DNA of 30,308 nucleotides from a virus: UHGV virus genome UHGV-0218987. The stretch is one strand, 5' to 3'. Position numbers and translations under genes: made by a program. Below are positions 1,251 through 24,750 of this stretch, in pieces (position 1 is the stretch's first letter; each line of letters begins with the position of its first letter). The notes beneath the pieces were generated by a model. That model ran no database searches, had not been told where the DNA came from, and saw only the letters and a list, made by a program, of their open reading frames with translations.

Positions 1251-1733
1251 CTATCTTGTCAGGGTGTCATACTGTTTTTCGCAGACTCTTCCGGCTTCGG
1301 CTGCCCGGTCAGCATACTCTGCCAGTTGTCTGTTTCTCTCGAGAGATTTGCTGAGCACGTCGGCAAGCAAAACTCCGGTATCTGCGGCTGACGCCCCAGC
1401 GCCGACAATGGCGTTATACTGCCTGAGCTGTTCACGGATGGCAACGAGCTGTTGCTGCAACCTGCCAGCGCGAGCGGCAGCATCAAGAGCATCATTGCGC
1501 GCCTGGTCGATCCTCTGCTGCGCTTCACGTTCATTGGTCACTTTCTCCTGTTCGTAGTACTGACGAACTTTTTCTTCTTCGGCTTTGCGGTCTTCTTCCG
1601 CCTGCGCATACCCGGCATCGTACTGACGGCTGCCGTGTATATTCCAGGCAACAACTCCTGATGTGGCAAGAACAGCAAGCATCGCCACGATAAGCAACTG
1701 TTTCCAGTATGCTTTTACGAATATCAGGATCAT
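1251..1733 (-). CDS. Rz: Rz-like i-spanin (inner-membrane spanin)
   Basis: N-terminal TM segment ([18 protein letters not shown]) followed by a coiled-coil periplasmic domain; last gene of the lysis cassette; start overlaps the endolysin stop; contains an embedded lipoprotein ORF in another frame. Confidence 0.75.
1259..1534 (-). CDS. Rz1: Rz1-like o-spanin (outer-membrane lipoprotein) embedded within Rz
   Basis: Fully embedded in the Rz gene in an alternative frame; lipobox LALAGC after a basic n-region; classic Rz/Rz1 embedded architecture. Exact start uncertain. Confidence 0.6.
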   Translation of the reverse strand: MNVKRSRGSTRRAMMLLMLPLALAGCSNSSLPSVNSSGSITPLSALGRQPQIPEFCLPTCSANLSRETDNWQSMLTGQPKPEESAKNSMTP

Positions 1734-2359
1734 ACCGCCAGCACCTTACTGGCAGTTATGTATCGCGCACGCCGGTCGTCGATGCCGTTCCGGCCACCAT
1801 TGATAATCAGAGTTACACGTGCAATATCACCGGTATACTTCATGCAGCCTTTGCTGGCAAAAAACCACGCCGCACTACGAGCCGCATATTCATCCTGCGC
1901 CAGCAGTTCAGGACTCTCCAGCAGGTCAACTTTCAGACCGTTTCCACAGTCACGATAGTTATTCAAACCGGTAATCTGGATAAGCCCGCGCCCACGGTAA
2001 TTCCAGCCATCACCAGGGGCATTGTTACCCATGCGTTTGCTGTACACCAAATTTGCGATCGCTCTCTGGCGCTCAAGTGGCAATGGTGGTTCACCAGCAC
2101 GGCGCCCCAATGCGTTGGCCTGCCCCTGAGTGAGACGCCCAGCCAGAACGAAGTTAGCCAGTCCGGTGACGCTGTAGTTGAAGTTCTCCTGCAGCCGGGT
2201 GAAGCCTCCAGACTCATGCCCGACCTGAGCAATAAACATTGCCTGATCTTCTGGTTTGCTGATACCAAACTCTTTCATCGCAGAAGTTATATGCGAGAAC
2301 CAGCGTGCGGCCAGCGCCTCGCTAATACCAGCAGCTCGCTGGAATTGTTTAATCTCCAT
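1730..2359 (-). CDS. Endolysin, glycoside hydrolase family 19 (chitinase-like lysozyme)
   Basis: GH19-type motifs ([29 protein letters not shown]); GAGGT RBS before the ATG; sits between a membrane protein gene and Rz. Confidence 0.85.
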
Positions 2360-2657
2360 GTTTAGACCTCGTTATTTTGAAAATCTGAACGACGTTACCG
2401 CGAGTTTTAAGAACCGCAGCAAGCATGACAGCATTGATAATGACCTCAGATAAATCCACAGCCATTGGCGTGCGTAACCAGATTGCATAGACGACACGAA
2501 CAGGAATACTGGCCGCAGCAACAATAAGGAAATAAGCAAGCCACCCTCCCCACCTTCGATGTTGTGAACCGTTACGCCGGAATGTGACAACACGAATTGC
2601 TATGCCAGTACAAATAAGTGCATTGGTGATAAGCAAAACAAGCTCATTAGTTACCAT
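2349..2657 (-). CDS. Lysis-associated small membrane protein (second holin or antiholin-like), about 3 TM segments
   Basis: Three hydrophobic segments; start overlaps the holin stop and stop overlaps the endolysin RBS, indicating translational coupling inside the lysis cassette. Confidence 0.6.
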
Positions 2658-3048
2658 CGCCTTTTCTCCCCGGAATTAACTCGCGTGGATTATCGGAACG
2701 GTGATAGAGCCAGATGCCAATTCGAACTGCAACGATTGCTGACACGAATGCACCAGCAGAGAAAACAATCCCTTTCTCGAAAGAGTCCTGCGTGATGGTA
2801 GGGATCAGGCTGGCTACGCCGATAAGGATGGATGCAGTTGGTTTGTAGAAGAGAAGGCCGCAGAGAAAGCTGAGCATCGACAGGAGAACCCGGCGGCGGA
2901 TCGGGTATTCGACAGCCGAGGTAACAAAGATTACCGCGCCTGCCAAAGACCCCAACGCCACTTCTGGCGGGACACCAGCGATTACCGCAGCGAGCGAACC
3001 CATACTAAGCCACTGATTTAAAGACTCACTTGTTAGCCCGGCTGACAT
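2647..3048 (-). CDS. Holin-like membrane protein (first gene of lysis cassette)
   Basis: Multiple TM segments in a protein of about 133 aa directly upstream of the endolysin; start taken as the ATG at 3048 (GGTGG RBS) rather than the GTG at 3057. Confidence 0.65.
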   Translation of the reverse strand: MSAGLTSESLNQWLSMGSLAAVIAGVPPEVALGSLAGAVIFVTSAVEYPIRRRVLLSMLSFLCGLLFYKPTASILIGVASLIPTITQDSFEKGIVFSAGAFVSAIVAVRIGIWLYHRSDNPRELIPGRKGDGN

Positions 3049-3110
3049 AATGACCACCGTTTACTGTGCATAAAGAACCTCCTTAGTTGGTTCTCATATC
3101 ATACACAATA

Positions 3111-3137
3111 AACCATATGTGTTTTAATTTGGTAACA
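3111..3137 (-). promoter_or_regulatory. Copy (i) of conserved regulatory cassette (GTTACCAAATTAAAACACATATGG) upstream of the lysis cassette
   Basis: The minus-strand read TTGTTACCAAATTAAAACACATATGGTT is homologous to the cassettes at 5987-6010 and 24999-25022; it contains a TGT-N12-ACA arrangement and lies about 60 nt upstream of the holin start, just after the tailspike terminator. Confidence 0.45.
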
Positions 3138-3180
3138 AATGAAAAAGCCCTTTAGTGAAAAACATTCATTAAAGGGCTAG
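3135..3180 (-). terminator. Rho-independent terminator after the tailspike gene
   Basis: Stem AGCCCTTTA / TAAAGGGCT followed on the minus strand by a T-run (TTTTTCATTTG). Confidence 0.6.
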
Positions 3181-3188
3181 ATATTTAC

Positions 3189-5933
3189 TTAACCTTTAGA
3201 AAAAACAGACAGTAACGGAAGTGTAAAAGTCGACACACCAGTATTCATCATGCAGGTTTTACCACCTGAGTATCCAGATATGGTTTGCGAAACTGGACTT
3301 CCTGTTGTTGGGAAAATGGTGATTTCATCCCCCCCCTTCAATACTCTAACTTTGCCTGTAACATCAACCGATGAACTTGAAACAGACGTGAGAGATCCGT
3401 TGGTCATTGTATAAAAGTTTATAGTTCCTGTTGCTGTTCTGCTTACACCACATCCTGATTTTTGCTTCTGTTTATAGTTAAACAATACCAGCAGGCCAAC
3501 AGGCATTGACTCAAGCTCAACTGCTGTAGACTGGTAGGTCTTACTGCCGTTTCTCATGTCAGGAGCCTCATCATCTGGATCAGAAAAATTATACCCAAGA
3601 GTTAAATCATTAACCGTGGCATTATTCCCTGTTATTCCTTTGACTTGATTAACACTTAACGGTATGTAATTAAACCCTGCAAAAAGCGGTGTTAACTTTT
3701 CTCTAAATAAAAGGCCTGGTGGGTATACTAACGAAGGTGTACCATCATATGTCACTGAGATAATATTAAGTCCCTTTTTAAGGGTTCCAATGCACGTTGT
3801 TTGTTTGCCTGTAAATGATGTTAGCCCATTGCTGGCAACTTTACCTGATAGATAAGAAGAGTTCCTGATGTCATTGAGAATGACATTGAACTGGTTAACA
3901 CGATCTGATGAAGTATAAGTTGGGTTATATGGCTCAAATAATGTTACAGAGATATCGCTTGTATCACTCCATACAAAATACCGACAAATAACATTTTCAT
4001 TTGAAGGCGTAATCCTTCCCCATCCACCAAGTGCATCAAGATAATCACCTCCACTTAATATCGAAATTGATGGGTAGTATCTGGTATTTGAAGGGTATCC
4101 AATACCAATAAATGAAAGTTGAGTAGTAGGGATTAGGTTCTTATTTTTTACAGCTGTATAAACGCGCTCTTTTAATACCTCTTTTGCAGCATAAGCACCG
4201 ATGTATGCATGTCCTATCGTTGATGGATGGCTCTGGTCAAAGACAGTACCGCCGTCACGTTTGGCAACATCAGATATAGAGTACGCGCCTATATCTGCAT
4301 AAGCGTCAGTCGTGGCAATGGACAAATCCAAAAACTCGACCTTTGGGAAAAGGCGTTCGATACGCTTCTTAATGGCTGACTCCAGGAAAGCCTTTGGCGC
4401 ATCGTTATTGTTTACAGTAACAAAGCATATCGGACAACCATATCCCCATGATTTTCTAATCAACTTTTCAAACTCATGAAAATACGCTTCAAATCCTATT
4501 GTTGGAAGTATTCCATTGTCATTAAAACCAAGGCTTATAAAAAGAACATCAGGAGCTTTTTTTCCATACGCAGCATTCTGGAAAAATCCATAGTCGAAGT
4601 TTTCATAACCCCAACCTGTCGCAAGTGACTTGCCAGACGATCCGCAGTTATATGCTTTAAAAATATTATCCGTGCTGTCGGATAGCATATTGAGGCAATC
4701 AGTAAAAATTCTGAACCATGAATGCTTACCGCCATTTAAATTATGATTGTAGTTGGTAGAGTTAAGATTTCCATCGCTACCAGTCGGGTTCGGGGTCCAT
4801 CCTGAACTATAGGCTCCATCCGTTATAGAATCACCAATGATACCTACATGGCAATCTTCTATAGTTGATTGGTAACTCTGCTTATTTGCAAATTTAGCAA
4901 TTGTTCCAAGAGCAGTAAAATCAGGGCCATTGTTAGATAGCCCAACATCAAAAACATGCTCATTACCCCATTTGTCTCTTGTGAGAATTTTACCTTCTCC
5001 AAGAAATTTAGTCACATCATCTGACGGTAAAAAATTACACCTGATGGTTACATCTTTTGGGATGTAAATCTGACCAGGGAAAGCATAAATTGCACTTCTG
5101 TTGTCAGTTGTCGTGTTAATAACGACATTTGGAACATAAAATATTGACGTTGCGTCAGTTCTATATTGTCCGTTAACAAGCTCAGATCTGAGAACCGCAT
5201 CCCCAACACCTCTCCAAGCGCCAGGACCAACACCACCAGTAGTGGTAGGAGTTGATCCTGGAGGAACTACTTTGGGCAGTGGCCCGTCCCATCTGTAGTA
5301 TTCGCCGTTGCTTTCCCAGAGAAGAACATCGTTAAGATAGATGATGGTATTACCCAACTCAAAAGATTTCTTCGTGTTATAGCCATACAATCCATTTTCT
5401 AAGGTTTCAATAATGGTGCTAAGTATGGTACTAAATTTTGCATAAAGATCATCAGTATATTTTTTTGTAGCAGCATCTTGGGGAAGAGATGGATCACGAA
5501 GATTTCTAATATAATTTGAAAGCGCGTCATAAAAAATTGCTACGTCATTTGGCTTTCTTAAAGCCAACTTATCATTTCTTAATGATTGTTGAATGAGCAT
5601 AGTAAGTTTATCAAACGCATCCTCATGTACCTCAGCGAAGAACTTACCCTGATTACGTAAATCCGTTTCCTGAGTAGCTGGTAGTTCTCGTGATATAGAT
5701 ATCTGATGACCGTTAGCCAACGCCTTCGAGAGAATTACATTACCGCCGTTATATCCTCCAGCCCCGGTAACTGTGTAATCAGTATCAAGAGCCAGCACAG
5801 CGATATTTTCGTCAAGGTCAACCACCTGTACTACCAGATCAGATTTATTGAAAACCCTAAAGGTGTACGGAAATGATGTCGTAACGCCGTTACCTGTGTA
5901 TTCGTTGTGGTCAACTTCGGTTGAGACCGTCAT
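3189..5933 (-). CDS. Tailspike / tail fibre with SGNH (GDSL) esterase domain
   Basis: 914-aa ORF with GGAGA RBS. N-terminal YTGNGVTTSFPYTF virion-attachment-like motif; central blocks GIIGDSITDG (GDSxxDG), ISLGFNDNG (GxND) and DQSHPS that together match SGNH hydrolase blocks I/III/V. Gene is visibly more AT-rich than its neighbours. Confidence 0.75.
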   Translation of the reverse strand: MTVSTEVDHNEYTGNGVTTSFPYTFRVFNKSDLVVQVVDLDENIAVLALDTDYTVTGAGGYNGGNVILSKALANGHQISISRELPATQETDLRNQGKFFAEVHEDAFDKLTMLIQQSLRNDKLALRKPNDVAIFYDALSNYIRNLRDPSLPQDAATKKYTDDLYAKFSTILSTIIETLENGLYGYNTKKSFELGNTIIYLNDVLLWESNGEYYRWDGPLPKVVPPGSTPTTTGGVGPGAWRGVGDAVLRSELVNGQYRTDATSIFYVPNVVINTTTDNRSAIYAFPGQIYIPKDVTIRCNFLPSDDVTKFLGEGKILTRDKWGNEHVFDVGLSNNGPDFTALGTIAKFANKQSYQSTIEDCHVGIIGDSITDGAYSSGWTPNPTGSDGNLNSTNYNHNLNGGKHSWFRIFTDCLNMLSDSTDNIFKAYNCGSSGKSLATGWGYENFDYGFFQNAAYGKKAPDVLFISLGFNDNGILPTIGFEAYFHEFEKLIRKSWGYGCPICFVTVNNNDAPKAFLESAIKKRIERLFPKVEFLDLSIATTDAYADIGAYSISDVAKRDGGTVFDQSHPSTIGHAYIGAYAAKEVLKERVYTAVKNKNLIPTTQLSFIGIGYPSNTRYYPSISILSGGDYLDALGGWGRITPSNENVICRYFVWSDTSDISVTLFEPYNPTYTSSDRVNQFNVILNDIRNSSYLSGKVASNGLTSFTGKQTTCIGTLKKGLNIISVTYDGTPSLVYPPGLLFREKLTPLFAGFNYIPLSVNQVKGITGNNATVNDLTLGYNFSDPDDEAPDMRNGSKTYQSTAVELESMPVGLLVLFNYKQKQKSGCGVSRTATGTINFYTMTNGSLTSVSSSSVDVTGKVRVLKGGDEITIFPTTGSPVSQTISGYSGGKTCMMNTGVSTFTLPLLSVFSKG

Positions 5934-6452: not shown

Positions 6453-6522
6453 GTGCCATAGTAATCGGGCACTGGCAAAATCCAGTGCCGGGATTGGCGT
6501 CCCGAGTTACTAAGTGGCGCAT

Positions 6523-6545
6523 ACCACGCCAGACGTGGTTTTTTT
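6523..6545 (+). terminator. Rho-independent terminator (or attenuator) downstream of the 6129 gene
   Basis: Stem ACCACG / CGTGGT with loop CCAGA followed by seven T. Confidence 0.6.
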
Positions 6546-6701
6546 ATGCGTTAAGCACAGCCATATCCGAATTATGGTGGGCTGGGCAGGGGTCCGAAAG
6601 GACGCCGGTACCACTTAGGCCGGTACGCCAACCTTGTCCAGTTCACCACCAGTAATTGGCGTTGCGGTGGTGATTAAAATCACTAAGTGGAGATAACCAC
6701 C

Positions 6702-7412
6702 ATGGCTAATGCTCAAACTGCCATCTTCAAATTTGAATCTGTTAACCCTATCCGTTCCATCATTATCGATGGCCAACCATGGTTTGTAGCCCAAGACGTT
6801 TGTAGTGCGCTGCGTATCCAAAACGTCACCCAAGCACTTGAAAAACTGGATGATGATGAAAGGTCTATGTTCAACATAGGGCATGAACATCGTGCAATTT
6901 TTGACAGCCGAGTAAAAGAGATCAACATCATCTCCGAGTCAGGCCTCTACACACTGATCCTCCGCTGCCGCGATGCGGTGACACCAGGCACTATCCCCTA
7001 CCGCTTTCGTAAATGGGTTACAGGTGAGGTTCTTCCTCAGATCCGCCGCACCGGAAGTTACATTAAAAACTCGCTCCCGCAGGAAGAACGCATAAAGATG
7101 GTTGCCGACCAGGTAGCCAACGCCACAGCATCAGCAGTGATGCAGGCAATGAAGATAGAGAACAAAACCTACAGTGCCCCACTGAAGCCCGGCTACCGCA
7201 GTCTGATTCATTCTCCGTCTGGTGTTCTCGGCCTGACGGAGAACTCACTGCTGATGAATTTGCTGAACCAGTTGCAGGAAGACGGGCACGATGTATCGGG
7301 CGCGGCGGCGGAGCTGACCACCATGTTTTGCTACATCGTTGGTGTGAGCAAATGCCTGCGTGATATCCAGACTCACGCGGAGTACATCAACGACAAGGCT
7401 GGGTTCTTCTGA
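6702..7412 (+). CDS. Bro-N / KilA-N-type antirepressor-like protein
   Basis: N-terminal Bro-N signature (FKFESVNPIRSIIIDGQPWFVAQDVCSALRIQN … YRFRKWVTGEVLPQIRRTGSY). Start at ATG 6702 with GGAGA RBS (the listed ORF starts at 6687). C-terminal about 70 aa paralogous to the 6129..6386 product. Confidence 0.75.
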   Translation: MANAQTAIFKFESVNPIRSIIIDGQPWFVAQDVCSALRIQNVTQALEKLDDDERSMFNIGHEHRAIFDSRVKEINIISESGLYTLILRCRDAVTPGTIPYRFRKWVTGEVLPQIRRTGSYIKNSLPQEERIKMVADQVANATASAVMQAMKIENKTYSAPLKPGYRSLIHSPSGVLGLTENSLLMNLLNQLQEDGHDVSGAAAELTTMFCYIVGVSKCLRDIQTHAEYINDKAGFF

Positions 7413-7559: not shown

Positions 7560-7739
7560 ATGCGAAACGAAAAATTGCAGATGCGTAGAGCGCAAGCTGC
7601 CGCAAGACGTTCTTTCAATGGAAGCGTAGAGTACGTAAAAGTTACTATGACAAAAGATCACGCAAGTCGCGTATCCCGAGCTTTCTTTGATTCTCGTAAC
7701 AATAAGGAAAATTATGAGTTCGTCTGCGTCGCAGAATGA
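7560..7739 (+). CDS. Small basic ORF (59 aa) overlapping the start of the downstream gene; candidate antitoxin or regulator
   Basis: ATG at 7560 with GAGGT RBS 6 nt upstream; ends at TGA 7737-7739, overlapping the 7714 start by 26 nt in another frame. Below the 60-aa cutoff of the supplied ORF track. No homology claimed. Confidence 0.35.
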   Translation: MRNEKLQMRRAQAAARRSFNGSVEYVKVTMTKDHASRVSRAFFDSRNNKENYEFVCVAE

Positions 7740-8259
7740 TAAAAATCAAATTGTCAGATATAAGGGTCGAGTATTGCATACGCAAAATTTCTCGGCCCTT
7801 TGTGCATCTGATCTTGAGCTGAAGAAAGTATCTGATGCCTTTACCCAGTATTGGAAAACGGGATACCATCCATCTCTTGGTAAAGATGCTGCATTTGCTC
7901 GTCCGACAGAAATGCTTAAACTAAATGTCAGGCATACTCATGTCGATAACCAAGACTATATTCCAGAAGATAGTGATAAAAAACACACTGGTAAAAAATC
8001 ATCTTGGGATGCATGGAAAAATATAGCGTCTGTGCAAGTAAAATGCATACCAACAAGTGATTGCTTTTTAGTTTATTCGGTAAATCACAATCGTGATGCG
8101 CTGGTTATGTTTTTTGTTGACGCAGATGCCCACAACATAACTGAGCAAGAAGAGTTTAAAGAGGAAGCAATCACTATCAGTTATCAATTCTTTGAGAAAA
8201 CAAAAACAGAACCAATGCCTTTAGAAGAAGATCTTTTTTCTGATAAATGGAAGGAATAA
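7714..8259 (+). CDS. AT-rich cargo protein, candidate YafO-like toxin (ribosome-dependent mRNA interferase family)
   Basis: ATG at 7714 with AAGGAA RBS (the listed ORF starts at a TTG at 7687). Motif pattern GKDAAFA … KLNVRHTHV … CFLVYSV … ALVMFFVDADAH resembles, from memory, conserved YafO blocks (GRDA…, RVAHIHL, LVY, AWLLIAIL-PEPH). Followed by a strong terminator. Confidence 0.5.
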   Translation: MSSSASQNDKNQIVRYKGRVLHTQNFSALCASDLELKKVSDAFTQYWKTGYHPSLGKDAAFARPTEMLKLNVRHTHVDNQDYIPEDSDKKHTGKKSSWDAWKNIASVQVKCIPTSDCFLVYSVNHNRDALVMFFVDADAHNITEQEEFKEEAITISYQFFEKTKTEPMPLEEDLFSDKWKE

Positions 8260-8281
8260 GCCCGCGTTGCGGGCTTTTTTG
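8259..8281 (+). terminator. Rho-independent terminator after the 7714..8259 gene
   Basis: GC-rich stem GCCCGC / GCGGGC followed by six T. Confidence 0.7.
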
Positions 8282-8317
8282 TGTCTGCGGATTCCCGCCC
8301 GGGCGGCGGTGGCATTC

Positions 8318-8345
8318 GTTAAAAACAAGGCCGCGAAAGCGGCCT
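8318..8345 (-). terminator. Rho-independent terminator after the 8359..8919 gene (convergent with the 8259-8281 terminator)
   Basis: Stem GGCCGC-GAAA-GCGGCC followed on the minus strand by CTTGTTTTTAACG. Confidence 0.6.
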
Positions 8346-8357
8346 GTGACATGTCAC
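8346..8357. repeat. 12-bp perfect palindrome GTGACATGTCAC (copy 1 of 3)
   Basis: Exact palindrome immediately 3' of the 8359..8919 stop codon; identical copies at 26035-26046 and 28486-28497. Confidence 0.8.
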
Positions 8358-8358
8358 G

Positions 8359-8919
8359 CTACATTGATATATGATTCATAAAGTAGCTTAAAGATTTACT
8401 TCCCAGAAAAGAAATTTCTTTTCCTGGATATGTCGCAATAATTGAGCATGACTTATCCCCGTTAGAGGTAACAAATCCTGAATAACCTACTTGTTCTTTA
8501 CCATTTTGTTGCTTGGCTAAAAAGTAGAGGTAGCTTATCTTTTTGCCCTCTGGGTAAAACTCTGCCAAACCAGTATCGGTGATTGAATATTTTATTCTCC
8601 CGCCTTGAGTAACGTTTTCCATCTCAAGTTTAGCTATGTCTTTTCTGTTGTATTCAGCATTGATTTTCCTTTCGAAATCAATGTTGTTTTCAAATGAGTA
8701 GGAAGCAACAGTCTGAATAGATGGGAACACGTTTATCTGGATGCCTCCACAGTCGGCACAGGTATAAAGGTATGAATCAGATGGAATCCCCATAAAAGAA
8801 AACTGAGTTACCTTAAATTTATCGTTATCTCCAAAGTATTGAAGTTCGCATTTAACATTTTGCCCTGCAAAAGAAAATGCAGACATCAATATTGAAACAA
8901 AAAATATAATTGCCTTCAT
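8359..8919 (-). CDS. Secreted (signal-peptide) protein of unknown function; AT-rich cargo gene appended to the late operon
   Basis: Signal-peptide-like N-terminus MKAIIFFVSILMSAFSFA; start overlaps the stop of the 850-aa gene (TAATG); visibly AT-rich; followed by a terminator. Confidence 0.7.
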   Translation of the reverse strand: MKAIIFFVSILMSAFSFAGQNVKCELQYFGDNDKFKVTQFSFMGIPSDSYLYTCADCGGIQINVFPSIQTVASYSFENNIDFERKINAEYNRKDIAKLEMENVTQGGRIKYSITDTGLAEFYPEGKKISYLYFLAKQQNGKEQVGYSGFVTSNGDKSCSIIATYPGKEISFLGSKSLSYFMNHISM

Positions 8920-8921
8920 TA

Positions 8922-11474
8922 TTATTTACCTAGCATGAACTGCGATGGTGGGATCAGAAAGTCGTTACCCTGCTCACGCTCAACACGGCGCTGATAACGC
9001 TCAAGAGAGCCTGGGTCAAGGGCATCTTGTATCCGGTTCAATATTAAACCATTCATCGCCGTACGAAGCCAGAACACGTTGAGGAATGGCGTATTGTCAA
9101 GTGCCGTGCGATACCAGTCACCCAAATCTGCATCCCCTCTCGTGGTCTGCTGGAGCAGCGTGATAATGCTGTCAGCGTTCGATGCTGCTGGCCCCATTAG
9201 CGACGTAACCGGCCCGGCCCCCATGCGGTTGACCTCGCCAAACATGAAGTCACCCAAGATGCCAAGACCGCCCCCCTGAGATGCGGCTGCGAGAAACGTC
9301 TTGGCATCTGCCGGGCGTGGTGTTTGCCCTTTCAGCATGAGTTTTGACTGCATGGAGATATAACCAAACATAGTCGCCCAGACAAAGAGGTTTGCAGCAC
9401 CAAGGAAAGCCCCCTTCCCGTTACGTAGCAGCGCATTCGTCAGCGATCCGGTTTTCGACTCACCAAGCCCAGCAGGAATATAACCACGCCCGAATACTTC
9501 GCGTCCTAGTACGTTCTGCATGAAGCTTGCAGTGAACGATTTGTACTGACCAGCGAATCGTATTGCTTCCCCAGCCACCGTTCCTGGCACCGTGCCCATC
9601 TTCATAAACGCCTGCGTGCGATCGCCAGGCTCTGACATGGCGATATTCAGGCGGTCAAGGATGTAGCCGCGCAACTGCCCTTCCAATTGATCGCGTGCGT
9701 CAGCGATAGCGCGCTGCGTTGGTTTGATCCCCTTACTCTCTACATAACCGGCAATCACTTCGTCAGGCACGCCGCGGATGCCGCTGGTCGTCATGAACTT
9801 ACGACCTTCGCTATCGGCCATGTCCATGTTGCGAAAAATTTCCCACTCACGTTCGCCAATACCGTGCAGATCCAGCACGCGTCGCAGGTCTTCCGGTAGC
9901 CGCGCATGAGACTGGTCAGCATTCTTTGCAAGCCAGTTGGTTATCATCATGGCGTTGCTGTTGCGACCGCTCTCGGTCCAGAAGTTCATGAGGTTGTACT
10001 TAAAGAAAAGCTGCTGCGCGCGACCAAGCTTTCCATTCAGCGTGTCATCACCAGATATGCGCCGGATGATTTCCTGCGTCATGGAGTCGGAATAAACTCC
10101 GATAGAGGAAAGGATCTCTTTCTGCTCCGCGCTGTTGTAACGCGTGAAGCGGCCTCTCATAGCACCAAGCAACGCCTGCATAAAATTCTGCCCTTGGTAG
10201 CGCATCTCGGTAGCGGCGATAGGCACGTCGTTAAACGATGAGATTACCGCACCACCAAGTTGGCTCATACGCAACCAGCCGCGTACAGCCGCCGACGCAT
10301 TGGCCCAGCCTACGCTGCCAGGAATATTTAGCGAGCCGTCAACCTGCGGCATTACGGTACGGTTAATGCGACGCACCTTCGTCATGTAGTCAGCCAACGC
10401 TGCCGGTCTTCCGGATTTGCTGATATCTTCAGCAATGGCGTCCGTCAGGTACTTAAACATGTTCTGTGGGTTAGTGCCCAGTACGCGCATCATGCCCGTT
10501 GTGCGGGCAGCGCTGTTTAAGCCACCAAACAGCGCTTCTCGCAGGCTGCCGGTGCCGAATTGCTGGTTGTACTCGTGCCACGAGATACCATCTTTGAAGT
10601 GCAAAATTCGCTCTTGGCTGGCGCGTTTAGCTGCGTTCGCCGATCCCTTAAAGCCATTCATCCAATCGGGCTTTTCAGATGTAAGATGCACGCCGGAAGC
10701 CAGCCCGTTATAAATGTTACGCATGAACTGCTCGCGGTCAGCCACGCCGTCAAAAGTGCGCTCATCAAGGCGCGGGAGAATAGCATTTCGCCATGCTTCA
10801 TAACCTGCGGCGCGGATCTTCATGATGTCGTGTGACTGGCGAACTATATAGCCCGGCTCTTTGCGTATCCATGCCCCGGCGCGGTTCTCATCAATGCGCG
10901 CAGTTTCCTGCCATTTCATGATGATTTGTGCAGCGCTTACGGATTGCTTTGTCATACCGTCAGTTGACTGCCCGCGCCCTATGCGCCACATTGCATCGGC
11001 AATTTCCCGGTCATTGCTGCCGCTGGCGATGAATTGCACCAGTCCGGCACGGTCAAAATCGTAGTTGATACCGGAATGATACTTGCCGCGCAGTTGCGCC
11101 ACCTCCGAAGATACCGACCGGCGGGCGCCGGTACGCGCATCGTTGCGGCCAACCAGCATTGCTTCAAGCCCGATATCCGGGCGGTCTTTCCAGATAGTAC
11201 GAAGCTCTCTAAGTCGTTGTGCGGCAATACGGGCGTTGATTGCCTTATTGCGAGCCTCAATCTGTTTTGCCAGCATATCGGCATTGCTCAGTTCTTCCGC
11301 TGCGCGCATCGCGGCCTCTTCCAGAGACAGCGCCTCATTGGTCGCCAGAATTCGCCTAGTGGTGTCGTTCATGTCACGCACCAGCGACTCCATCTCATCG
11401 GAAGAAAGCTCGCGACCAGCGGCAGCATTTACACTGCGCTCGCACTGCGTCAAAAATTCGTTTGCTGCCATCAC
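8922..11474 (-). CDS. Large internal virion / DNA-ejection protein (850 aa)
   Basis: Long ORF in a run of three large, translationally coupled genes downstream of the tail tubular genes; assignment by position and size (podovirus internal-core analogue), not by a recognised motif. Confidence 0.55.
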   Translation of the reverse strand: MMAANEFLTQCERSVNAAAGRELSSDEMESLVRDMNDTTRRILATNEALSLEEAAMRAAEELSNADMLAKQIEARNKAINARIAAQRLRELRTIWKDRPDIGLEAMLVGRNDARTGARRSVSSEVAQLRGKYHSGINYDFDRAGLVQFIASGSNDREIADAMWRIGRGQSTDGMTKQSVSAAQIIMKWQETARIDENRAGAWIRKEPGYIVRQSHDIMKIRAAGYEAWRNAILPRLDERTFDGVADREQFMRNIYNGLASGVHLTSEKPDWMNGFKGSANAAKRASQERILHFKDGISWHEYNQQFGTGSLREALFGGLNSAARTTGMMRVLGTNPQNMFKYLTDAIAEDISKSGRPAALADYMTKVRRINRTVMPQVDGSLNIPGSVGWANASAAVRGWLRMSQLGGAVISSFNDVPIAATEMRYQGQNFMQALLGAMRGRFTRYNSAEQKEILSSIGVYSDSMTQEIIRRISGDDTLNGKLGRAQQLFFKYNLMNFWTESGRNSNAMMITNWLAKNADQSHARLPEDLRRVLDLHGIGEREWEIFRNMDMADSEGRKFMTTSGIRGVPDEVIAGYVESKGIKPTQRAIADARDQLEGQLRGYILDRLNIAMSEPGDRTQAFMKMGTVPGTVAGEAIRFAGQYKSFTASFMQNVLGREVFGRGYIPAGLGESKTGSLTNALLRNGKGAFLGAANLFVWATMFGYISMQSKLMLKGQTPRPADAKTFLAAASQGGGLGILGDFMFGEVNRMGAGPVTSLMGPAASNADSIITLLQQTTRGDADLGDWYRTALDNTPFLNVFWLRTAMNGLILNRIQDALDPGSLERYQRRVEREQGNDFLIPPSQFMLGK

Positions 11475-13168
11475 ATCCCCCGGTTAATCATACAGGCGGC
11501 AAATGCCCGGAAAGCGTTGCTCATGCTATTGTCGCTGGCGTCGGCACGAATATCATTGAGTTTCTGGCGCAACGTGGTCGCAAGATCAGGGTTATCGACA
11601 GCGATATCGTCAAGCAGGGCGTTACTCAGGTTGAGCTCGTTATCAAGGTCTGCAGCGGCAGCGGTAATTTCATGATCTGCCTTTTGCGTTTCTTGATAAA
11701 CCCGATCGGCTGTTTCGCTTGCTGGGCGAGCCGTTTCATCAACCTGCCGTGCCGGGTTCTGTATGCGATGGATGGCGCGTTCACGCAGTGCCGGTTTGTG
11801 CAGTTCATAGAAGGGCTCAACATCTGGGCTACGTCCTTCCATCATGTGTGCCAGCGCAGCGCGATACGCCTGCTGGTTCACGTTCCAGTCAGCATCCCTG
11901 ATGGCGCTTGCGGCAGTGCGAACTGCGCCAGCGACCGGCGACATCTGCATGCCGTCCAGGATCTGCTGCGCACGCTCGGAAATGGTGACTTTCAGATCGT
12001 CGGGGATATCGCCGCGGGAAATCTGAGACTGGCGCCAGCGCGCCTGCTCTGCTGTCGCGTTCTGCTCCAGCGATGTGTTGATCTCCTGATTGCGTGCAGC
12101 GATGGCGTCTTTCTCGGCCTGAATCTCTTTCAGTGCCCTAGAGCGCGCATCCTTAAACTTCATCCGCTGCCCCTGATACTTTTTGGTGCGCTGCTGCAGC
12201 GTCGCATCAAGCGAGTCAGCATGACGTTGATTAGCCGCAAGCTCGGCACGCAGGTCGGCAACGTTACCGATCTGCCCGCTCTGTAACTCCTGCTGGCGCG
12301 CCATATAGTCAGGAACCACGTCGTCATAAGCCCGGCTGTATGCGTAGCTCTCCGCTTCACTGGAAATGGCCGCCGCCAGATCTGCGTTAGCGCCAACCTC
12401 AGGGATATTCACGCCCGCCGGAATGTTGTCAGGCGTTATCACCGGGGTTGGCTGCGCATCGCCAGAAAACGCCGGGGACTCTCCCGTTGCAGCATCGGGA
12501 ACGCGACGCGGTCGCACGATATCGGCGATAAGGCCGCCGCCGGCATGCATTAGACCGCCAGCCATCGTGTTAAAGAAAGTACTTTCCAACGCGTTGCTAT
12601 AGGTGAAGTCGTCACCTTCCGCCGCCGCTGCCAGCCCGGTAAGCGGCACGGTCACCACCGCCTGCGCTGCCCCCATGCGTGCACCAGCAACAAATCGCTC
12701 GCCAAATCGGCCAAGCACAGAAGCCGCCTTTGCTTCTCCAGCGAACGGAACCAGCGCCAGCGCCACGTTACCAGGATCTGCCATTGAACCAGCTAGGCTG
12801 GCTGCGAAATTAAGCGGCGTGGCTACCCACCCGCTCGGTGCCGACATCGCGATCTGCTGGCGTGCCAGAGAATCTTTGCGTTCGGCAATAACATGATCGA
12901 GAAAAGCCTGCGTAACGCCAGAATCTGGCACGTTTATGCTCTTTACGCCGTACTGCTTCAGGAGCTCATCCGCTTCCTGCTTACTGATAACTGTAGAGTT
13001 TGGGTCATTCGCCAGCGAGTCGGCCTGCGCAAAGCGGTAGCCGGACATGACCGGCCCCTCTTCAAATCCCTGCTTAAGGGAAGAAAGCAGCGATTCGCCA
13101 AGCCCTGCTGGCGCGTTGCCAATTGGCTGGTTAATTCCCTGTCCCGGATCATCTGTGTAAATTGGCAT
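11471..13168 (-). CDS. Internal virion / DNA-ejection protein (565 aa)
   Basis: Coupled to flanking genes by 4-nt overlaps; Ala/Gly-rich with a coiled-coil C-terminal half; assignment by position. Confidence 0.55.
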   Translation of the reverse strand: MPIYTDDPGQGINQPIGNAPAGLGESLLSSLKQGFEEGPVMSGYRFAQADSLANDPNSTVISKQEADELLKQYGVKSINVPDSGVTQAFLDHVIAERKDSLARQQIAMSAPSGWVATPLNFAASLAGSMADPGNVALALVPFAGEAKAASVLGRFGERFVAGARMGAAQAVVTVPLTGLAAAAEGDDFTYSNALESTFFNTMAGGLMHAGGGLIADIVRPRRVPDAATGESPAFSGDAQPTPVITPDNIPAGVNIPEVGANADLAAAISSEAESYAYSRAYDDVVPDYMARQQELQSGQIGNVADLRAELAANQRHADSLDATLQQRTKKYQGQRMKFKDARSRALKEIQAEKDAIAARNQEINTSLEQNATAEQARWRQSQISRGDIPDDLKVTISERAQQILDGMQMSPVAGAVRTAASAIRDADWNVNQQAYRAALAHMMEGRSPDVEPFYELHKPALRERAIHRIQNPARQVDETARPASETADRVYQETQKADHEITAAAADLDNELNLSNALLDDIAVDNPDLATTLRQKLNDIRADASDNSMSNAFRAFAACMINRGM

Positions 13169-13169
13169 G

Positions 13170-15791
13170 TTATCGTCCTGATTGCTGGCCGTTCTGGAAA
13201 ATGTTAATCAGGTTGTCGCGCTGACTTTCTGCGCTGTATTCCTTAGACTGTCCGGGAGTATATTTCACCGGAGTATCAATGAACTTGGTAATGCTGTTCC
13301 ATACTGATCGGTTGGTTGTTCCCAGTTTCGCCAGATCGTTGAACGGCACCGTAATCGGGTTGCCGTCGGCACCGTTGACGATCAGCCCGTTGAGCATCAG
13401 GGTAAGTCCTGTTTCGTCGCTGTTGGTAACCCACTGCGCATTATCACGAATGCGGGAGATACTCTGCTCACGGTTGACCTCATCAGGTAGCCTTGGGTCA
13501 CCAATAAGCGGCATAATCTGATCTGCTGACAGGTTTTTCAGATACGCATTGGCACCATCGTTAACGTCACGAATATCTATCCCTGCACGCTTAGGTAGCC
13601 GCCAAGTGCCATTGGTCTGGTACTGCTCGCCGAGGATGTCCTGATACGCCTGTTTTGCTGCATCAGACGCCGACATTCCGCGCTGCATGTTGATGTAAGT
13701 AAGTCGTTTTCCCTGCTCGTTGAAGTTATTCCACACGGCAGTGCCACCAGGCTGAACAACCATCGTGCCAGCAAAATCTTTCGATTGGTCATTCCATGAC
13801 GAGTCGGCGCTATCCGCGTCGGTTTTCTCAAGACTGCCGCGTAAGTCAGCAGTTTTAACGCTACGGTTTTGCCAGAGCGCATTTGCCGCGCGCGGGTTCT
13901 CGGTAGCCATGACAACCTGCAACGCAGGATAAGCGCTCTTCTGAACCTGCTGCATCACCTGATCCGAGTATTTGCCGAACGACTGCGCCACCGACTGAAT
14001 GGCCTTTACGCTAGATTCCTGCGTGTTGTCAATACGCTGCAGTACATCATTGACCATGGACTCCGGTAAAACTTTTTTGCTCATTATCCCCAGGCGGTCT
14101 TTTTCAGACTGTATTCGGGAAACTAGGTATTCACCAGATGAAGGGTCATTCAGGTACTGCTGGAATGCAGCCTGCACAACCGGAGAGTTTTGTTGCAGCC
14201 ATGCCCCCGGATCCGCTTCCCGCGCCTTCAGTACCTGCCCAAGCTTGACCTTTGCCGATGCATAAAGCTCTGCTTTGTATTTAAAGTCAGGGTCGTTTTC
14301 CTGCGGTGCCATTGCCTGCACGGCGGCGGTACCCTGCTGGACGTTGCCCTGCATAATGGTCTGATAAACAGGTTGTAGCGTCATTGCCTGCTGGTATTGC
14401 TGGAAGGTTTTTTCCATCTGCAGGCGCTCGGCAGGCGCTGCCTGAAGCGGCATAACGGCGGCCCATTCGTGCGCTGAAATAGGCGTCACCTGCTTACCGG
14501 CCTCAATTTTGGATAGGTCGTCCTGCATTCGACTCTGTAGCGCAACGCGACCGGCTGAAGCCTGCATGTCGTACATGCCAGCAACCTTGCTCATCATCTG
14601 CGACTTTTTGTCCGGACTCATGGCGTTCCAGAATGGCTGTGCGATGAGGTTTTCCATCGTCGCAGATCCAGGAATAGCTCCAGCACTGCCAGTTACTTTT
14701 GCCACATAATTGCGCGTCTCGTCGTATGGGATAGCTGCGGCAAACTGGGCGTTACTGACTTCGCCTGTGCGCGGGTCGCCAATCTGTTTAATCCAGCCGT
14801 CAACCTTTCCTGGGCCAGCGTTATAGGCAGCTACTGCCAGAACCGGGTTATTGTCGTATTTCTTCATCTGCGCGCCGAAATAAGCTTGCCCCAAGCGGGC
14901 ATTATAGCGCGGGTCATTCAACCATTTATCGCGGTCCCACGGCACGCCAGCAAGGCGGGCAGCTTCGGGGCCAGTATCTTCCGTCACCTGCGCTACGCCA
15001 ACAGCGCCTTTTGGCGACACCAGAGGTGTTCCGTCCTTTCCGTACTGATTTCCGCCACTCTCCTGCCAGATTATTGCAGAGAATAACTGCGCCTCACTCG
15101 GTGTATCGGTTACCTCAATCTTGCCGTTCGGACCCATCATCTGTTGATACATCGGCACATACCACGCCTCCGCCGCACCGTTCGCGGCATTCTCGCGCCA
15201 CGAAACCCAGTTCTGTTCGATCTCTTCCTGACTCTGGCCGTGGGCTTCGCCGTAAGCGATGATGCTATGATATGCCTTCAATCCTGCCTGGTTTGCCATT
15301 GTCGGGTTACGGAACTGCATCGATAGGTTTTTTAGTGTCGCATCCTGCATATCCGCCTCATACTGGCGAACCTGTCCTATTTCGTACCTCCCGGCCTGCG
15401 TAGTGAACTGAATGCGCTGCTGCTGCGCCTGCTGCATGAAAGCATTACGAGCCTGTTCATCCGGCAGCGACATAGCCAGTTGCTCGACCTGGGCATCAAA
15501 CTGCTGCGTATACTCCTGACCTTTTCCAATAGCATTTTTCCCTTTCAGGTTAAGCAATCCTGTTTCAGGATTATTCAGCAGATCGCTGCTTATCTGACTG
15601 AGGTTAAGAGATGCCTCCTGAGCCAGAGCGATATTGGCACGCTGTTTTGCCTGCCCCAAAACATCAATTGCCTCTGTCCCTGCCCGAACAAAAGCATCAC
15701 CAATACCTTGCTGAGAAAACGTCTGCAAGCCTGCTGACTGAACTCCACGACTCTCAACCTGACGTCCGGATACTGTTGGTACGACTGGCAT
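13170..15791 (-). CDS. Internal virion protein with lytic transglycosylase (SLT/GH23) domain
   Basis: SLT motifs IIWQESGGNQYG … GVAQV … AAYNAGPGKV. Start taken at ATG 15791 (MPVVPTVSG…, TAATG overlap with the upstream stop) rather than the listed 15866. Confidence 0.75.
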   Translation of the reverse strand: MPVVPTVSGRQVESRGVQSAGLQTFSQQGIGDAFVRAGTEAIDVLGQAKQRANIALAQEASLNLSQISSDLLNNPETGLLNLKGKNAIGKGQEYTQQFDAQVEQLAMSLPDEQARNAFMQQAQQQRIQFTTQAGRYEIGQVRQYEADMQDATLKNLSMQFRNPTMANQAGLKAYHSIIAYGEAHGQSQEEIEQNWVSWRENAANGAAEAWYVPMYQQMMGPNGKIEVTDTPSEAQLFSAIIWQESGGNQYGKDGTPLVSPKGAVGVAQVTEDTGPEAARLAGVPWDRDKWLNDPRYNARLGQAYFGAQMKKYDNNPVLAVAAYNAGPGKVDGWIKQIGDPRTGEVSNAQFAAAIPYDETRNYVAKVTGSAGAIPGSATMENLIAQPFWNAMSPDKKSQMMSKVAGMYDMQASAGRVALQSRMQDDLSKIEAGKQVTPISAHEWAAVMPLQAAPAERLQMEKTFQQYQQAMTLQPVYQTIMQGNVQQGTAAVQAMAPQENDPDFKYKAELYASAKVKLGQVLKAREADPGAWLQQNSPVVQAAFQQYLNDPSSGEYLVSRIQSEKDRLGIMSKKVLPESMVNDVLQRIDNTQESSVKAIQSVAQSFGKYSDQVMQQVQKSAYPALQVVMATENPRAANALWQNRSVKTADLRGSLEKTDADSADSSWNDQSKDFAGTMVVQPGGTAVWNNFNEQGKRLTYINMQRGMSASDAAKQAYQDILGEQYQTNGTWRLPKRAGIDIRDVNDGANAYLKNLSADQIMPLIGDPRLPDEVNREQSISRIRDNAQWVTNSDETGLTLMLNGLIVNGADGNPITVPFNDLAKLGTTNRSVWNSITKFIDTPVKYTPGQSKEYSAESQRDNLINIFQNGQQSGR

Positions 15792-16336
15792 TATAATCCT
15801 CCGGGTAATCTGGTTCCTGCTGCTGCCCCGATTGGCGCAGGAGTGCTTTGAGTAAACGGACTCCACGTCCCACCAAACATCTGGTACGCACCGTATGCCT
15901 TCAGAGGCGCAGTGAGCAATGTTGTTGCTGCTCCCACATTCCCCTGTTTACGGGCTGAACTGGCTTCTGCTTTATAGTTGGCAGCCTGAACCTGATAACC
16001 GTAAGCCTCGCGTTGCGCGTTATTCACCGTCGTCAGCGAATCAAGAGCGCCAAACTGGGCAGTGTCGCCAAATATATCCAGCGCGTTACCTGTAGATAAA
16101 TCAGAGCCGGTAGCCCCCATTGTCGCCGCCTGTGTACCAAGCCGCTGTCGGGTCTCTCTGCGCCGTTGCTCAGCTTCAGCGTTACCCCTGTTTATTGCAT
16201 CATTTGCCTGAGCTGTGGCTATATCTGCGTTCGCTTCTGCAACCTTCGAGGCATACTTTCCCTGTTGGTACTGGGTGTATGCCTGAATGCCACTCATGGC
16301 GAGCATTGCGCCACCAGCAATAACCGGATCGCACAT
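15791..16336 (-). CDS. Small internal virion protein (T7 gp14-like by position)
   Basis: 181-aa Ala/Gln-rich protein between the tail tubular genes and the large ejection proteins; tightly coupled to its neighbours. Confidence 0.5.
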   Translation of the reverse strand: MCDPVIAGGAMLAMSGIQAYTQYQQGKYASKVAEANADIATAQANDAINRGNAEAEQRRRETRQRLGTQAATMGATGSDLSTGNALDIFGDTAQFGALDSLTTVNNAQREAYGYQVQAANYKAEASSARKQGNVGAATTLLTAPLKAYGAYQMFGGTWSPFTQSTPAPIGAAAGTRLPGGL

Positions 16337-22781: not shown

Positions 22782-23074
22782 TCCTGTTCACTGGCCTCTT
22801 TGGCCATCTTCAAATACTGTTCAGGGCAATGCGCCATAACGCGCTGAAACAGCTCCAGCGCCAGATTGCGTTGCCCCTCATTAAATGCCATTGCCATAGC
22901 ATCCATCGGAGAGATAGCGGAAAACACCCGGCCTTTCTCCAGCACAGACCAGACAACGCGACGCCCCTGTTCACTGCTCATGACAAAGCGAATGTCATCA
23001 ATTTCACGCTGTGCCATGTCACGTTGCTTACGGGCGTTTTCTTCTTTCAGTTGATCGTCTTCGTAATCTGTCAT
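22778..23074 (-). CDS. Hypothetical small head-module protein
   Basis: 98-aa ORF overlapping the portal stop and the scaffold start (4-nt overlaps). Confidence 0.45.
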   Translation of the reverse strand: MTDYEDDQLKEENARKQRDMAQREIDDIRFVMSSEQGRRVVWSVLEKGRVFSAISPMDAMAMAFNEGQRNLALELFQRVMAHCPEQYLKMAKEASEQE

Positions 23075-24750
23075 TGTGATTGCCCACCCTGACCACTAAC
23101 TGCATTCGCCATAGCTGACAAAACACTCGGATCCGAAGTTTTAGCTTCGCTTAGCGTCTTGGCACCCTGTGCCGCCGCCATCCCCATCGCCATCATTTGT
23201 TGCTGCTGTTGTTGCTGTGCCCGTTGCTGGCGAGCCTGCTCAACCTGTTCCTGCGGAACAATGACGGTTGGAGACACTCCAGACATATCAGCGAATGCAT
23301 CGATCGCCTGATCAACGTTGAGTTTGTCGAGAGCTTCTGGTTTCGCTTGCGCAAGTTGACCAATGAAGTTAACCGTGGACGCCAGACTGGACAGGCCGAT
23401 AGACTTCTGCGCCTGAGCCATGACGGAAATGTATTCGACCTTCAGGGGCATGCCTTCCATCGCGTCAGGCGGTGGCGGCAACATGTTTTTACGCACCATC
23501 ATCGAGAAAGCGCGGTCAATGAGAGGATTAAGACATTCGTCGTTCAGACGCTCCAGAACCGGCCCCAACATCAGAAGTTTTTCTTCTTTCATTTCGATCA
23601 CCGCTTCAACAGGCATCGAGCGGGTATTGATGTTCTGCAACATCATGAACAGATCGACAAAGTAGGCGCTGTTAATGATTTGACGAGTGTCCTGAATGTC
23701 TGCCACCAAATCTGCTGTACTGGGGTTAACCAGATAAGCAGGCCTGAAGCCATCCTGACCAGTAATCTGATCGATATACGTGATGTCGCCAGGAAGAAGG
23801 GAGGCGCGCTGATTCTTGAGGGAAGTCGGAGCAACCATCGGAGGATTGGTGGCTTTATCAATCAACTGCGACTTGCGCTTCTGGAGAAGCTGCAATGCCT
23901 TAACAGGTCCAAGCGCCAGCATACCCGGGCATGATGATCCATAAACATCTTCGCCGTTAACTTCCCAGCGCGGAGCCATAATTGGAAACTCATCGAATCC
24001 GGACTCACGCAACAACTTGTCGTTATCGCCACCAACCTCGTAATAAACCGATTTGAATGGCTTGTTCTTGCTATCCAGCTTCGATGTATCGCGGTCAATG
24101 TTCGGATAAACCGAATGCATCACTTCAATCCACTTCTCGTAGGTGCCGCTTTCCCACATGCTTTTTACGGATTCGCTGACGTTATTTAGTCCGAATTCCT
24201 GAACAAGCTGACGAACAGTCATAGAGAACTTGCGAAAACAGGTGTCCACACTGCCACGAGGTGAGTTAGCCAGGTAGTAACTTCCTATCGGGAATGGCAT
24301 TGTACGAATGATGTCCTCGTCATCCTCCAGCACCGCCATTGCACCGGTGCTGTATGTGCCGAGGCTTCCGTATAACTGCGGCAGCGACTGATAGAGATTC
24401 GACTTATTGAACATATCGTTCATGCGGTTCTGCACTGCCTCAAGCCACAACTTAACAGGGCCATAATCCATCATTTCAGGATCTGGCGTAGCCAGGCGAA
24501 ACCACGGACGCACGGGGCTTGTGATGCCTGACATCATGCCGCTGGCGAGAGTGCGCGCCGCCATAGTCCCAGTCGAATCAATAATGCGTGTATTGCGTCG
24601 ATCGTTACGGTTGACCTCAGAAGTCAGAAAGCGGGAACCACGCGGGTTGATGTAATCACTCAACTCGCGCCAGTGCGGCTCGAACGACTGACGCTCGCTT
24701 TCAAGTTGTGCGAACTGTTTGTTCAATCGCTCTTTAGTTGTTTCCGCCAT
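23071..24750 (-). CDS. Portal (head-to-tail connector) protein
   Basis: 559-aa ORF upstream of the scaffold and capsid genes with GGAG RBS; size and position consistent with a podovirus portal; acidic Gln-rich C-terminus. Confidence 0.7.
   Translation of the reverse strand: MAETTKERLNKQFAQLESERQSFEPHWRELSDYINPRGSRFLTSEVNRNDRRNTRIIDSTGTMAARTLASGMMSGITSPVRPWFRLATPDPEMMDYGPVKLWLEAVQNRMNDMFNKSNLYQSLPQLYGSLGTYSTGAMAVLEDDEDIIRTMPFPIGSYYLANSPRGSVDTCFRKFSMTVRQLVQEFGLNNVSESVKSMWESGTYEKWIEVMHSVYPNIDRDTSKLDSKNKPFKSVYYEVGGDNDKLLRESGFDEFPIMAPRWEVNGEDVYGSSCPGMLALGPVKALQLLQKRKSQLIDKATNPPMVAPTSLKNQRASLLPGDITYIDQITGQDGFRPAYLVNPSTADLVADIQDTRQIINSAYFVDLFMMLQNINTRSMPVEAVIEMKEEKLLMLGPVLERLNDECLNPLIDRAFSMMVRKNMLPPPPDAMEGMPLKVEYISVMAQAQKSIGLSSLASTVNFIGQLAQAKPEALDKLNVDQAIDAFADMSGVSPTVIVPQEQVEQARQQRAQQQQQQQMMAMGMAAAQGAKTLSEAKTSDPSVLSAMANAVSGQGGQSQ

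Follow-up and report, generated by a model that had tools for sequence, protein, structure and literature searches.

The subject of this study is ORF186, a gene on the minus strand (8919→8359) of the virus genome UHGV-0218987, which we analysed as a single window of 30,308 nt. The gene occupies positions 8359..8919 and encodes the 186-aa precursor of a predicted exported protein of ~19 kDa (RefSeq WP_000643933.1; phrog_11983). We consider it very probable that the ORF186 product is an accessory protein of the periplasm, exported by Sec and not part of the virion, that has a binding fold of the PsbP/Mog1 type, is made together with the internal core proteins of the phage and has a stable place in a slot that epsilon15-like podophages reserve for envelope proteins. 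More tentatively, the protein might mediate superinfection exclusion at the DNA-entry step by binding the ejection proteins released by a second phage, a role that we regard as possible rather than probable. An initial annotation had placed a 186-aa open reading frame (ORF) exactly at these positions, in agreement with our analysis, and had described it as secreted cargo added to the end of an ejection-protein operon.

A genuine gene of deviant composition

ORF186 is a genuine gene and not a chance ORF, because its full-length relatives span 28-92% identity, its homologues are under purifying selection (ratio of nonsynonymous to synonymous substitution rates, dN/dS, ~0.11), AlphaFold2 returned a confident model, RefSeq annotates the gene and phrog_11983 matches it. 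This family, to which no function is assigned, is the only one that matches ORF186, and it does so from end to end; the RefSeq label of the protein is 'hypothetical protein'. Searches of Pfam returned nothing for the single sequence or for all 20 family members (E <= 5), and even at this threshold neither PsbP (PF01789) nor DcrB-DUF1795 (PF08786) matched any of the 20. A hidden Markov model profile of the family found nothing significant among the PDB sequences, PADLOC gave no match for ORF186, and a literature search found no mention of the accession WP_000643933.1. The family is already catalogued, as PHROG 11983, and uncharacterised, and its fold has not previously been linked to an exclusion role.

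As the initial annotation had noted, the gene is AT-rich. Its GC content is 0.353, and its GC content at third codon positions is 0.342, versus 0.550 and 0.606 in the upstream gene for an 850-aa protein. The same AT-richness relative to the neighbouring gene is common to every locus that carries an ORF186 homologue. ORF186 thus shows the composition, deviating from that of flanking phage genes, by which accessory 'morons' are recognised.

A predicted signal peptide and four invariant cysteines

The sequence features of residues 1-18 of ORF186, MKAIIFFVSILMSAFSFA (8866..8919, minus), predict a Sec signal peptide that would be cut before G19 by signal peptidase I (SPase I). The N-terminus, MKAIIFFVSILMSAFSFA|G, combines a basic n-region, a hydrophobic core and small residues at -3/-1 in the layout MK / AIIFFVSILMSAF / SFA|G, which is that of a Sec/SPase-I substrate. 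Its KD19 of 1.85 makes it the sole segment at or above 1.6 among all the genes of the operon, and no second hydrophobic segment occurs in ORF186 beyond the signal peptide. All 20 aligned relatives, down to 28% identity, keep this architecture, although the residues themselves are not conserved. The cysteines C24, C54, C57 and C158 are invariant in the same alignment. The conserved signal character and the four invariant cysteines therefore fit an exported, disulfide-stabilised protein; we infer that ORF186 is exported to the periplasm with cleavage after Ala18, and the four cysteines probably form stabilising disulfides.

The earlier description of a secreted, signal-peptide-bearing protein is thus supported by sequence features, with the specification that the protein is predicted not to be a lipoprotein. 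Lipoprotein prediction had been suggested as a check; a lipobox, [LVI][ASTVI][GAS]C, is absent from ORF186, the first cysteine being C24, in the context NVKC, six residues past the predicted cut. Because there is no lipobox, we rejected the status of a bacterial lipoprotein processed by signal peptidase II.

Predicted fold of the mature protein

An AlphaFold2 model of residues 20-186, built from 20 sequences including the 28-45% relatives, reached a mean predicted local distance difference test score (pLDDT) of 90.6 and a predicted template modelling score (pTM) of 0.88; removal of the signal peptide and addition of the 28-45% relatives had raised the confidence to this level. In this model the mature protein adopts an alpha/beta sandwich of the PsbP/Mog1/DUF1795 superfamily. 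Fold matches, with their scores, were cyanobacterial PsbP (11.5), the Eag chaperone SciW (9.8), Mog1 (9.5), PA0094 (9.5), LpqN (9.0), an immunity protein of the T6SS (type VI secretion system), Tsi3 (7.9), DcrB (7.9), TplEi (7.7) and Tli5 (7.2). The Foldseek result agreed with this list of PsbP/Mog1-type matches, and the top viral matches were phage models labelled 'surface-exposed lipoprotein' and 'lipoprotein'. These relatives are alike at the fold level only, with sequence identities of 4-13%.

Many members of the PsbP/Mog1/DUF1795 superfamily are exported or lumenal protein-binding modules, a likeness to ORF186 as we predict it, whereas the pattern of four cysteines is specific to the ORF186 family. 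The model resembles in particular the periplasmic T6SS immunity proteins Tsi3, Tli4/TplEi and Tli5, of which Tsi3 neutralises an injected muramidase in the periplasm. In contrast to the genes of such immunity proteins, ORF186 has no T6SS or effector genes adjacent to it.

Position at the end of the late operon

The start codon of ORF186 lies 2 nt past the stop codon of the gene for the 850-aa protein (8922..11474, minus), and the coding strand at the junction reads GGT AAA TAA TA ATG. This junction (8920..8933, minus) consists of the stop codon TAA at 8924-8922, the 2-nt spacer and, at 8931-8928, an AGG(T) motif resembling a Shine-Dalgarno sequence, which is located within the last codons (L-G-K) of the 850-aa gene. 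The claim that ORF186 starts on the upstream stop codon has to be amended, as the sequence is TAA-TA-ATG; among the homologues, the spacer to the upstream stop measures 2-22 nt, and a 1-nt overlap is found in the homologue at locus L029 only. The 2-nt gap, the internal AGG Shine-Dalgarno motif and the lack of a sigma70-like promoter within 400 nt together suggest that the translation of ORF186 is coupled to that of the 850-aa gene and make late co-transcription the parsimonious reading. To this extent, the expression from the late operon that had been proposed earlier appears correct.

The upstream gene was likewise properly identified as the last of the ejection-protein genes. The 850-aa protein belongs to phrog_684 ('virion structural protein') and stands at the end of a series of T7-gp14-family, SLT-domain, 565-aa and 850-aa proteins, the order of which is the epsilon15/phiV10 architecture. 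Because its relatives are annotated as virion structural proteins, 'internal virion protein' or 'pilot protein', the label 'ejection-protein operon' is functionally reasonable. The 850-aa protein is 45-49% identical to its counterparts in Pseudomonas phage Ab31 and Stenotrophomonas phage BUCT708 by tblastn (44-45% in global alignments) and only ~24% identical to phiV10 gp20.

Downstream, an intrinsic terminator (8318..8345, minus) consisting of the hairpin AGGCCGC-TTTC-GCGGCCT and a T-run (AGGCCGCTTTCGCGGCCT-TGTTTTT; hairpin with T-run at 8345..8328) begins 14 nt past the ORF186 stop. Between the stop and the hairpin lies a perfect 12-bp palindrome, GTGACATGTCAC (8346..8357), which could be a protein-binding site or an extended stem of the terminator. 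Most of the homologue loci (L002, L031, L003, L004, L021, L026, L028 and L029) retain the palindrome, as do phiV10 and epsilon15; in the latter phage, it overlaps with the stop codon of gp18. The hairpin and T-run bear out the part of the initial annotation that gave ORF186 a terminator, but this terminator is not its own. Because the same cassette of palindrome and GGCCGC hairpin also follows phiV10 p21, epsilon15 gp18 and most of the ORF186 homologues, its sequence identifies it as the conserved, shared late-operon terminator of epsilon15-like phages. The ~60 bp at 8300-8361 were the sole part of the query that matched in 466 other E. coli genomes. A promoter-like sequence, GTGACA-18-TATGAT (10/12 matches), was also noted at 8346-8375 on the plus strand; its -35 element is formed by one half of the palindrome, and it would direct transcription antisense into ORF186. 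The match may be due to chance.

In the vicinity of the terminator, the DNA matches that of phiV10, TL-2011b and further E. coli phages of the Uetakevirus type, and by sequence the window represents a mosaic, epsilon15/phiV10-like (Uetakevirus-like) E. coli prophage. A P22-like identity was rejected, as the neighbours at the DNA and protein levels are phiV10, epsilon15, TL-2011b, Ab31 and BUCT708.

Distribution of the family and occupants of the slot

Of 5426 complete E. coli genomes, 56 carry ORF186, in every case together with this one allele of the 850-aa gene, and the ORF was present in 16 contigs of IMG/VR; by tblastn, it was absent from the sequenced phages of INPHARED and from the plasmids of PLSDB. 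The family comprises ~25 clusters at 90% identity, with named sources in Salmonella, Cronobacter, Citrobacter, Enterobacter, Klebsiella and Hafnia in addition to metagenomes. A contig scan of the GTDB species representatives found no relative, and a third homologue search, with a wider profile, added no new members.

In 10 of 11 distinct contexts, an ORF186 homologue (34-92% identity) stands immediately behind the last large core gene. It diverges at about the pace of the other core proteins and faster than the 850-aa protein. The remaining context is that of a 28% relative (locus L008, 1263-1829) between a TraI_2 relaxase-like gene and an MPTase-PolyVal (ArdC-like) gene on a 4-kb contig, which suggests an integrative and conjugative element or a plasmid. 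Because this relative stands alone, with an upstream spacer of ~350 nt, members of the family can evidently work without phage core genes in cis. The word 'cargo' in the initial annotation would be misleading if it implied sporadic occurrence, since the gene is kept in its slot across deep divergence (28-45% identity).

One hybrid locus shows that this residence does not depend on a particular core allele. In locus L030 (ENA ERZ27336788 NODE_196, 1517-4564), a 70%-identical homologue lies behind a phiV10-type core protein of 824 aa, which shares 87% identity with phiV10 gp20 but only 25% with the 850-aa protein of our window. This locus reveals that the slot gene has recombined between core modules with an identity of only 25%. 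Therefore, ORF186 is a portable, self-contained cassette and not the partner of one core allele. The same hybrid led us to reject ORF186 as a dedicated chaperone for the 850-aa allele.

In other phages, the slot between the last core gene and the palindrome-terminator cassette is occupied by different proteins that are also envelope-targeted. Epsilon15 has gp18 (64 aa), phiV10 has p21 (46 aa) and BUCT708 has a 95-aa protein, each with two transmembrane (TM) segments; unlike ORF186, to which they have no similarity, gp18 and p21 are thus small two-TM membrane proteins of 46-64 aa. At the 36%-identity locus, an AT-rich gene (L006, 9636-10049; L007, 1768-2181) comes after ORF186 on that strand and encodes a predicted 137-aa lipoprotein, MNNKIMLLSSILILFGC..., with a weak match to phrog_8691, as a second envelope protein in the slot.

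A possible role in superinfection exclusion

How might a protein of this kind act? In the mechanism that we propose, ORF186 would share the transcript of the late operon, and its translation would be coupled to that of the last core gene. Sec would export the precursor, the signal peptide would be removed after Ala18, and the mature protein of ~19 kDa would fold in the periplasm into a sandwich of the PsbP/Mog1/DUF1795 type, probably stabilised by disulfides. As a protein-binding module, it would then intercept the ejection proteins of a second infecting podophage in the periplasm. Its targets could be the SLT transglycosylase protein and, in the 565-aa and 850-aa proteins, the hydrophobic segments that form the conduit, and as a result the trans-envelope DNA conduit would not be formed. 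Exclusion would act during late lytic growth, and in lysogens given read-through or cryptic transcription.

We favour this role for four reasons. First, the position of the gene resembles that of sieA. In P22, sieA is located between gene 16 and immI/gene 9, and its product blocks the gp16/gp20 conduit (PMC10883804). Like sieA, ORF186 directly follows the last ejection-protein gene of a temperate podophage, lies beside an immI region and specifies an envelope-directed product; P22 sieA is also up-regulated on induction. The P22-like exclusion position claimed in the initial annotation therefore holds as an analogy of slot and of the adjoining immI-like region, although the phage itself is epsilon15/phiV10-like. 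Second, exclusion proteins with a signal peptide are encoded by other phages, namely P1 SimC, in the sequence of which we saw the signal peptide, and T4 Sp, which we liken to ORF186 by its description. SimC and Sp exert their effect in the periplasm once a phage has adsorbed, Sp by inhibiting gp5, the lysozyme of the incoming phage. The imm and sp products of T4 block DNA injection (PMC11436027). Third, the predicted fold is akin to that of periplasmic immunity proteins, which counteract muramidases and lipases injected into the cell. Fourth, the gene behaves as a cassette across different core modules. The presence of other envelope-targeted proteins (gp18, p21, the BUCT708 two-TM protein and the L006 lipoprotein) in the same slot elsewhere also speaks for this role.

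The likenesses have their limits. SieA, a multi-pass protein of the inner membrane, has a promoter of its own 85 bp upstream and the motif FxRYPxEAxxFNK, which defines the family (PMC10883804), whereas ORF186 is predicted to be soluble and exported and has no TM segment apart from the signal peptide, no detected promoter and no homology to SieA; the motif is not present in its sequence, so that it falls outside the SieA family. SimC and Sp differ from ORF186 in having early or lysogenic promoters of their own, and homology to P1 SimC was rejected, the BLASTP match having E = 0.28 over 37 residues. The earlier proposal of an exclusion factor is, as regards an envelope-directed role, compatible with all of our findings. 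No similarity to SieA or P1 SimC was found.

Several observations weigh against the periplasmic and exclusion roles that we favour. The sequence of ORF186 resembles no known exclusion protein (E = 0.28 for P1 SimC; none in PADLOC) and no Pfam or PDB family. The fold depends on one good model, because the AlphaFold2 run on the full-length protein with 14 close sequences gave a pLDDT of only 39.8, and folds of the PsbP/Mog1 type are generic scaffolds for binding, found also in proteins with unrelated roles, such as PsbP, Mog1 and the cytoplasmic Eag chaperones. In Ab31 the slot is empty, despite a homologous core module. Finally, no evidence was found for the lysogen-active promoter that had been raised as a possibility: a promoter scan detected no sigma70-like promoter on the coding strand upstream of ORF186, a relaxed hexamer scan of the 400 nt upstream of the gene in nine loci detected none for its homologues, and in the 850-aa gene synonymous-site conservation is no higher at the 3' end than elsewhere. 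Expression in lysogens, the usual requirement for prophage exclusion, is therefore unsupported.

Alternative functions

The initial annotation had also offered receptor masking or lysogenic conversion. An O-antigen-specific role is disfavoured because the tailspikes next to ORF186 homologues are unrelated between loci while ORF186 itself stays unchanged. For the same reason receptor masking or O-antigen conversion is unlikely, all the more so because a soluble periplasmic protein cannot reach the lipopolysaccharide.

A different form of conversion is that ORF186 is a host-directed moron, a periplasmic factor that benefits the bacterium in envelope stress, in colonisation or in defence against T6SS or colicin-type toxins, with no role between phages. 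We hold this to be rather unlikely, although it accounts for several features. The GC content departs strongly from that of the neighbour in all homologues (0.35 vs 0.55), the gene borders a hypervariable cargo region (YafO-like, DUF4760, SocA_Panacea, DUF2335 and Arc/Ant genes), the fold resembles Tsi3, Tli4 and Tli5, and one relative occurs in a non-phage mobile element. Morons of the lambda lom and bor type are AT-rich genes for envelope proteins with signal peptides, in late-operon orientation after the last structural gene. These classical morons have their own promoter and are expressed in the lysogen, whereas no promoter was detected for ORF186, which is welded to the late operon by a spacer of 2-22 nt or a 1-nt overlap. 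Unlike lom and bor, moreover, ORF186 is syntenically stable, keeping one slot through deep phage divergence and not occurring sporadically, and its rarity among complete E. coli genomes (56/5426), always with the same core allele, also speaks against this reading.

The gene organisation that speaks against a moron predicts strictly late expression, and this would suit a periplasmic factor of the lytic cycle. Such a factor could set the timing of lysis, like the T4 RI antiholin or a spanin modulator, or could inhibit a host periplasmic protease, nuclease or peptidoglycan enzyme and thereby protect the envelope or the progeny until release. The predicted periplasmic location of the product, its conservation in a phage lineage, as expected of a function that benefits the phage, and the small membrane proteins that occupy the same slot in relatives are all in keeping with this possibility. 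Nevertheless, the lysis cassette lies elsewhere (~1251-3057, minus) and looks complete, with two holin-like genes, a GH19 endolysin and a DUF2514 spanin-like gene; ORF186 is dispensable in Ab31, phiV10 and epsilon15; and it has no similarity to known antiholins. We therefore judge a lytic-cycle role to be unlikely.

It is very improbable that ORF186 is a virion or assembly factor with an uncleaved N-terminus, either a cytoplasmic Eag (DUF1795)-like chaperone that shields segments of the ejection proteins during packaging or a fourth ejected protein: the tight translational coupling to the core genes and a divergence comparable to that of other core proteins would fit, but a textbook signal-peptide architecture with a character kept over 28-92% identity argues against packaging, the four invariant cysteines are in keeping with an oxidising compartment, none of the core proteins (maximum KD19 = 1.44) has a strongly hydrophobic TM segment to shield, and ORF186 works behind a core module only 25% identical while homologous modules lack it (Ab31, phiV10 and epsilon15).

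Returning to superinfection exclusion, we can conceive of a bolder form of that role, although we think it unlikely in its entirety. ORF186 might found a new class of soluble periplasmic exclusion proteins, in which a disulfide-stabilised decoy with an Eag/PsbP fold would capture incoming ejection proteins by their SLT domain or by the hydrophobic segments that insert into the membrane; the slot would then be a dedicated, exchangeable 'ejectosome-blocker' locus, held by epsilon15 gp18, phiV10 p21, two-TM proteins, the L006 lipoprotein or ORF186. Should ORF186 block the delivery of the genome, no exclusion factor would have been described before it in epsilon15/phiV10-type podophages, nor any with a fold of the PsbP/Eag type. 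It would also offer a handle on the periplasmic assembly of T7-like ejectosomes, because escape mutations should map to the core protein that is bound. Exclusion genes of this kind limit the phages used for therapy and typing against the O-antigens of E. coli and Salmonella. Whatever its function, the analysis defines a conserved, exchangeable envelope-protein slot at the end of the core operon and assigns a predicted fold to PHROG 11983.

Other features of the prophage

Upstream of the 850-aa gene, the core operon includes, all on the minus strand, the genes for the 565-aa internal core protein (11471..13168; phrog_3003), the internal core protein with the SLT lytic transglycosylase domain (13170..15791) and the 181-aa virion core protein of the T7 gp14 family (15791..16336). 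The mechanically called SLT ORF of 898 aa reaches 15866 and overlaps the gp14-family gene (15791-16336) by 76 nt; because the family match begins at residue 26, corresponding to the 873-aa coding sequence in RefSeq, the true start is probably at 15791.

On the other side of ORF186, a convergent, AT-rich accessory gene resembling the YafO toxin (7687..8259, plus) has its own terminator (8258-8276) and marks the start of the hypervariable cargo region. This hotspot extends from the late-operon terminator to the tailspike, and its contents vary between loci (equivalents in L001, L003, L004, L005 and L028), being by locus a YafO-like toxin, DUF4760, SocA_Panacea, DUF2335/ORF6N and Arc/Arc/KilA-N-ANT. 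Farther along is the immI-like module (6469..7412, plus), composed of the isrK small RNA (sRNA; 6469-6545), the C4 antisense RNA (6570-6653) and a Bro-N antirepressor-like gene (6687-7412). Rfam recognised the Hfq-binding isrK sRNA with 67 bits and the C4 antisense RNA with 66 bits, both directly upstream of the Bro-N gene, and we identify the unit from these matches as a control module of the P1/P7 immI type (c4-ant) within an epsilon15-like prophage. Past this module come the tailspike, the lysis cassette and then the host gene yfgI. Elsewhere in the window, a non-operon insert of ~1.1 kb separates the portal gene (23071-24750) from the large terminase gene (26121-27596). On the strand opposite to these two genes, it carries a tRNA-Arg(TCT) gene (25399-25475, plus) and a 118-aa ORF, also on the plus strand (25674-26030).

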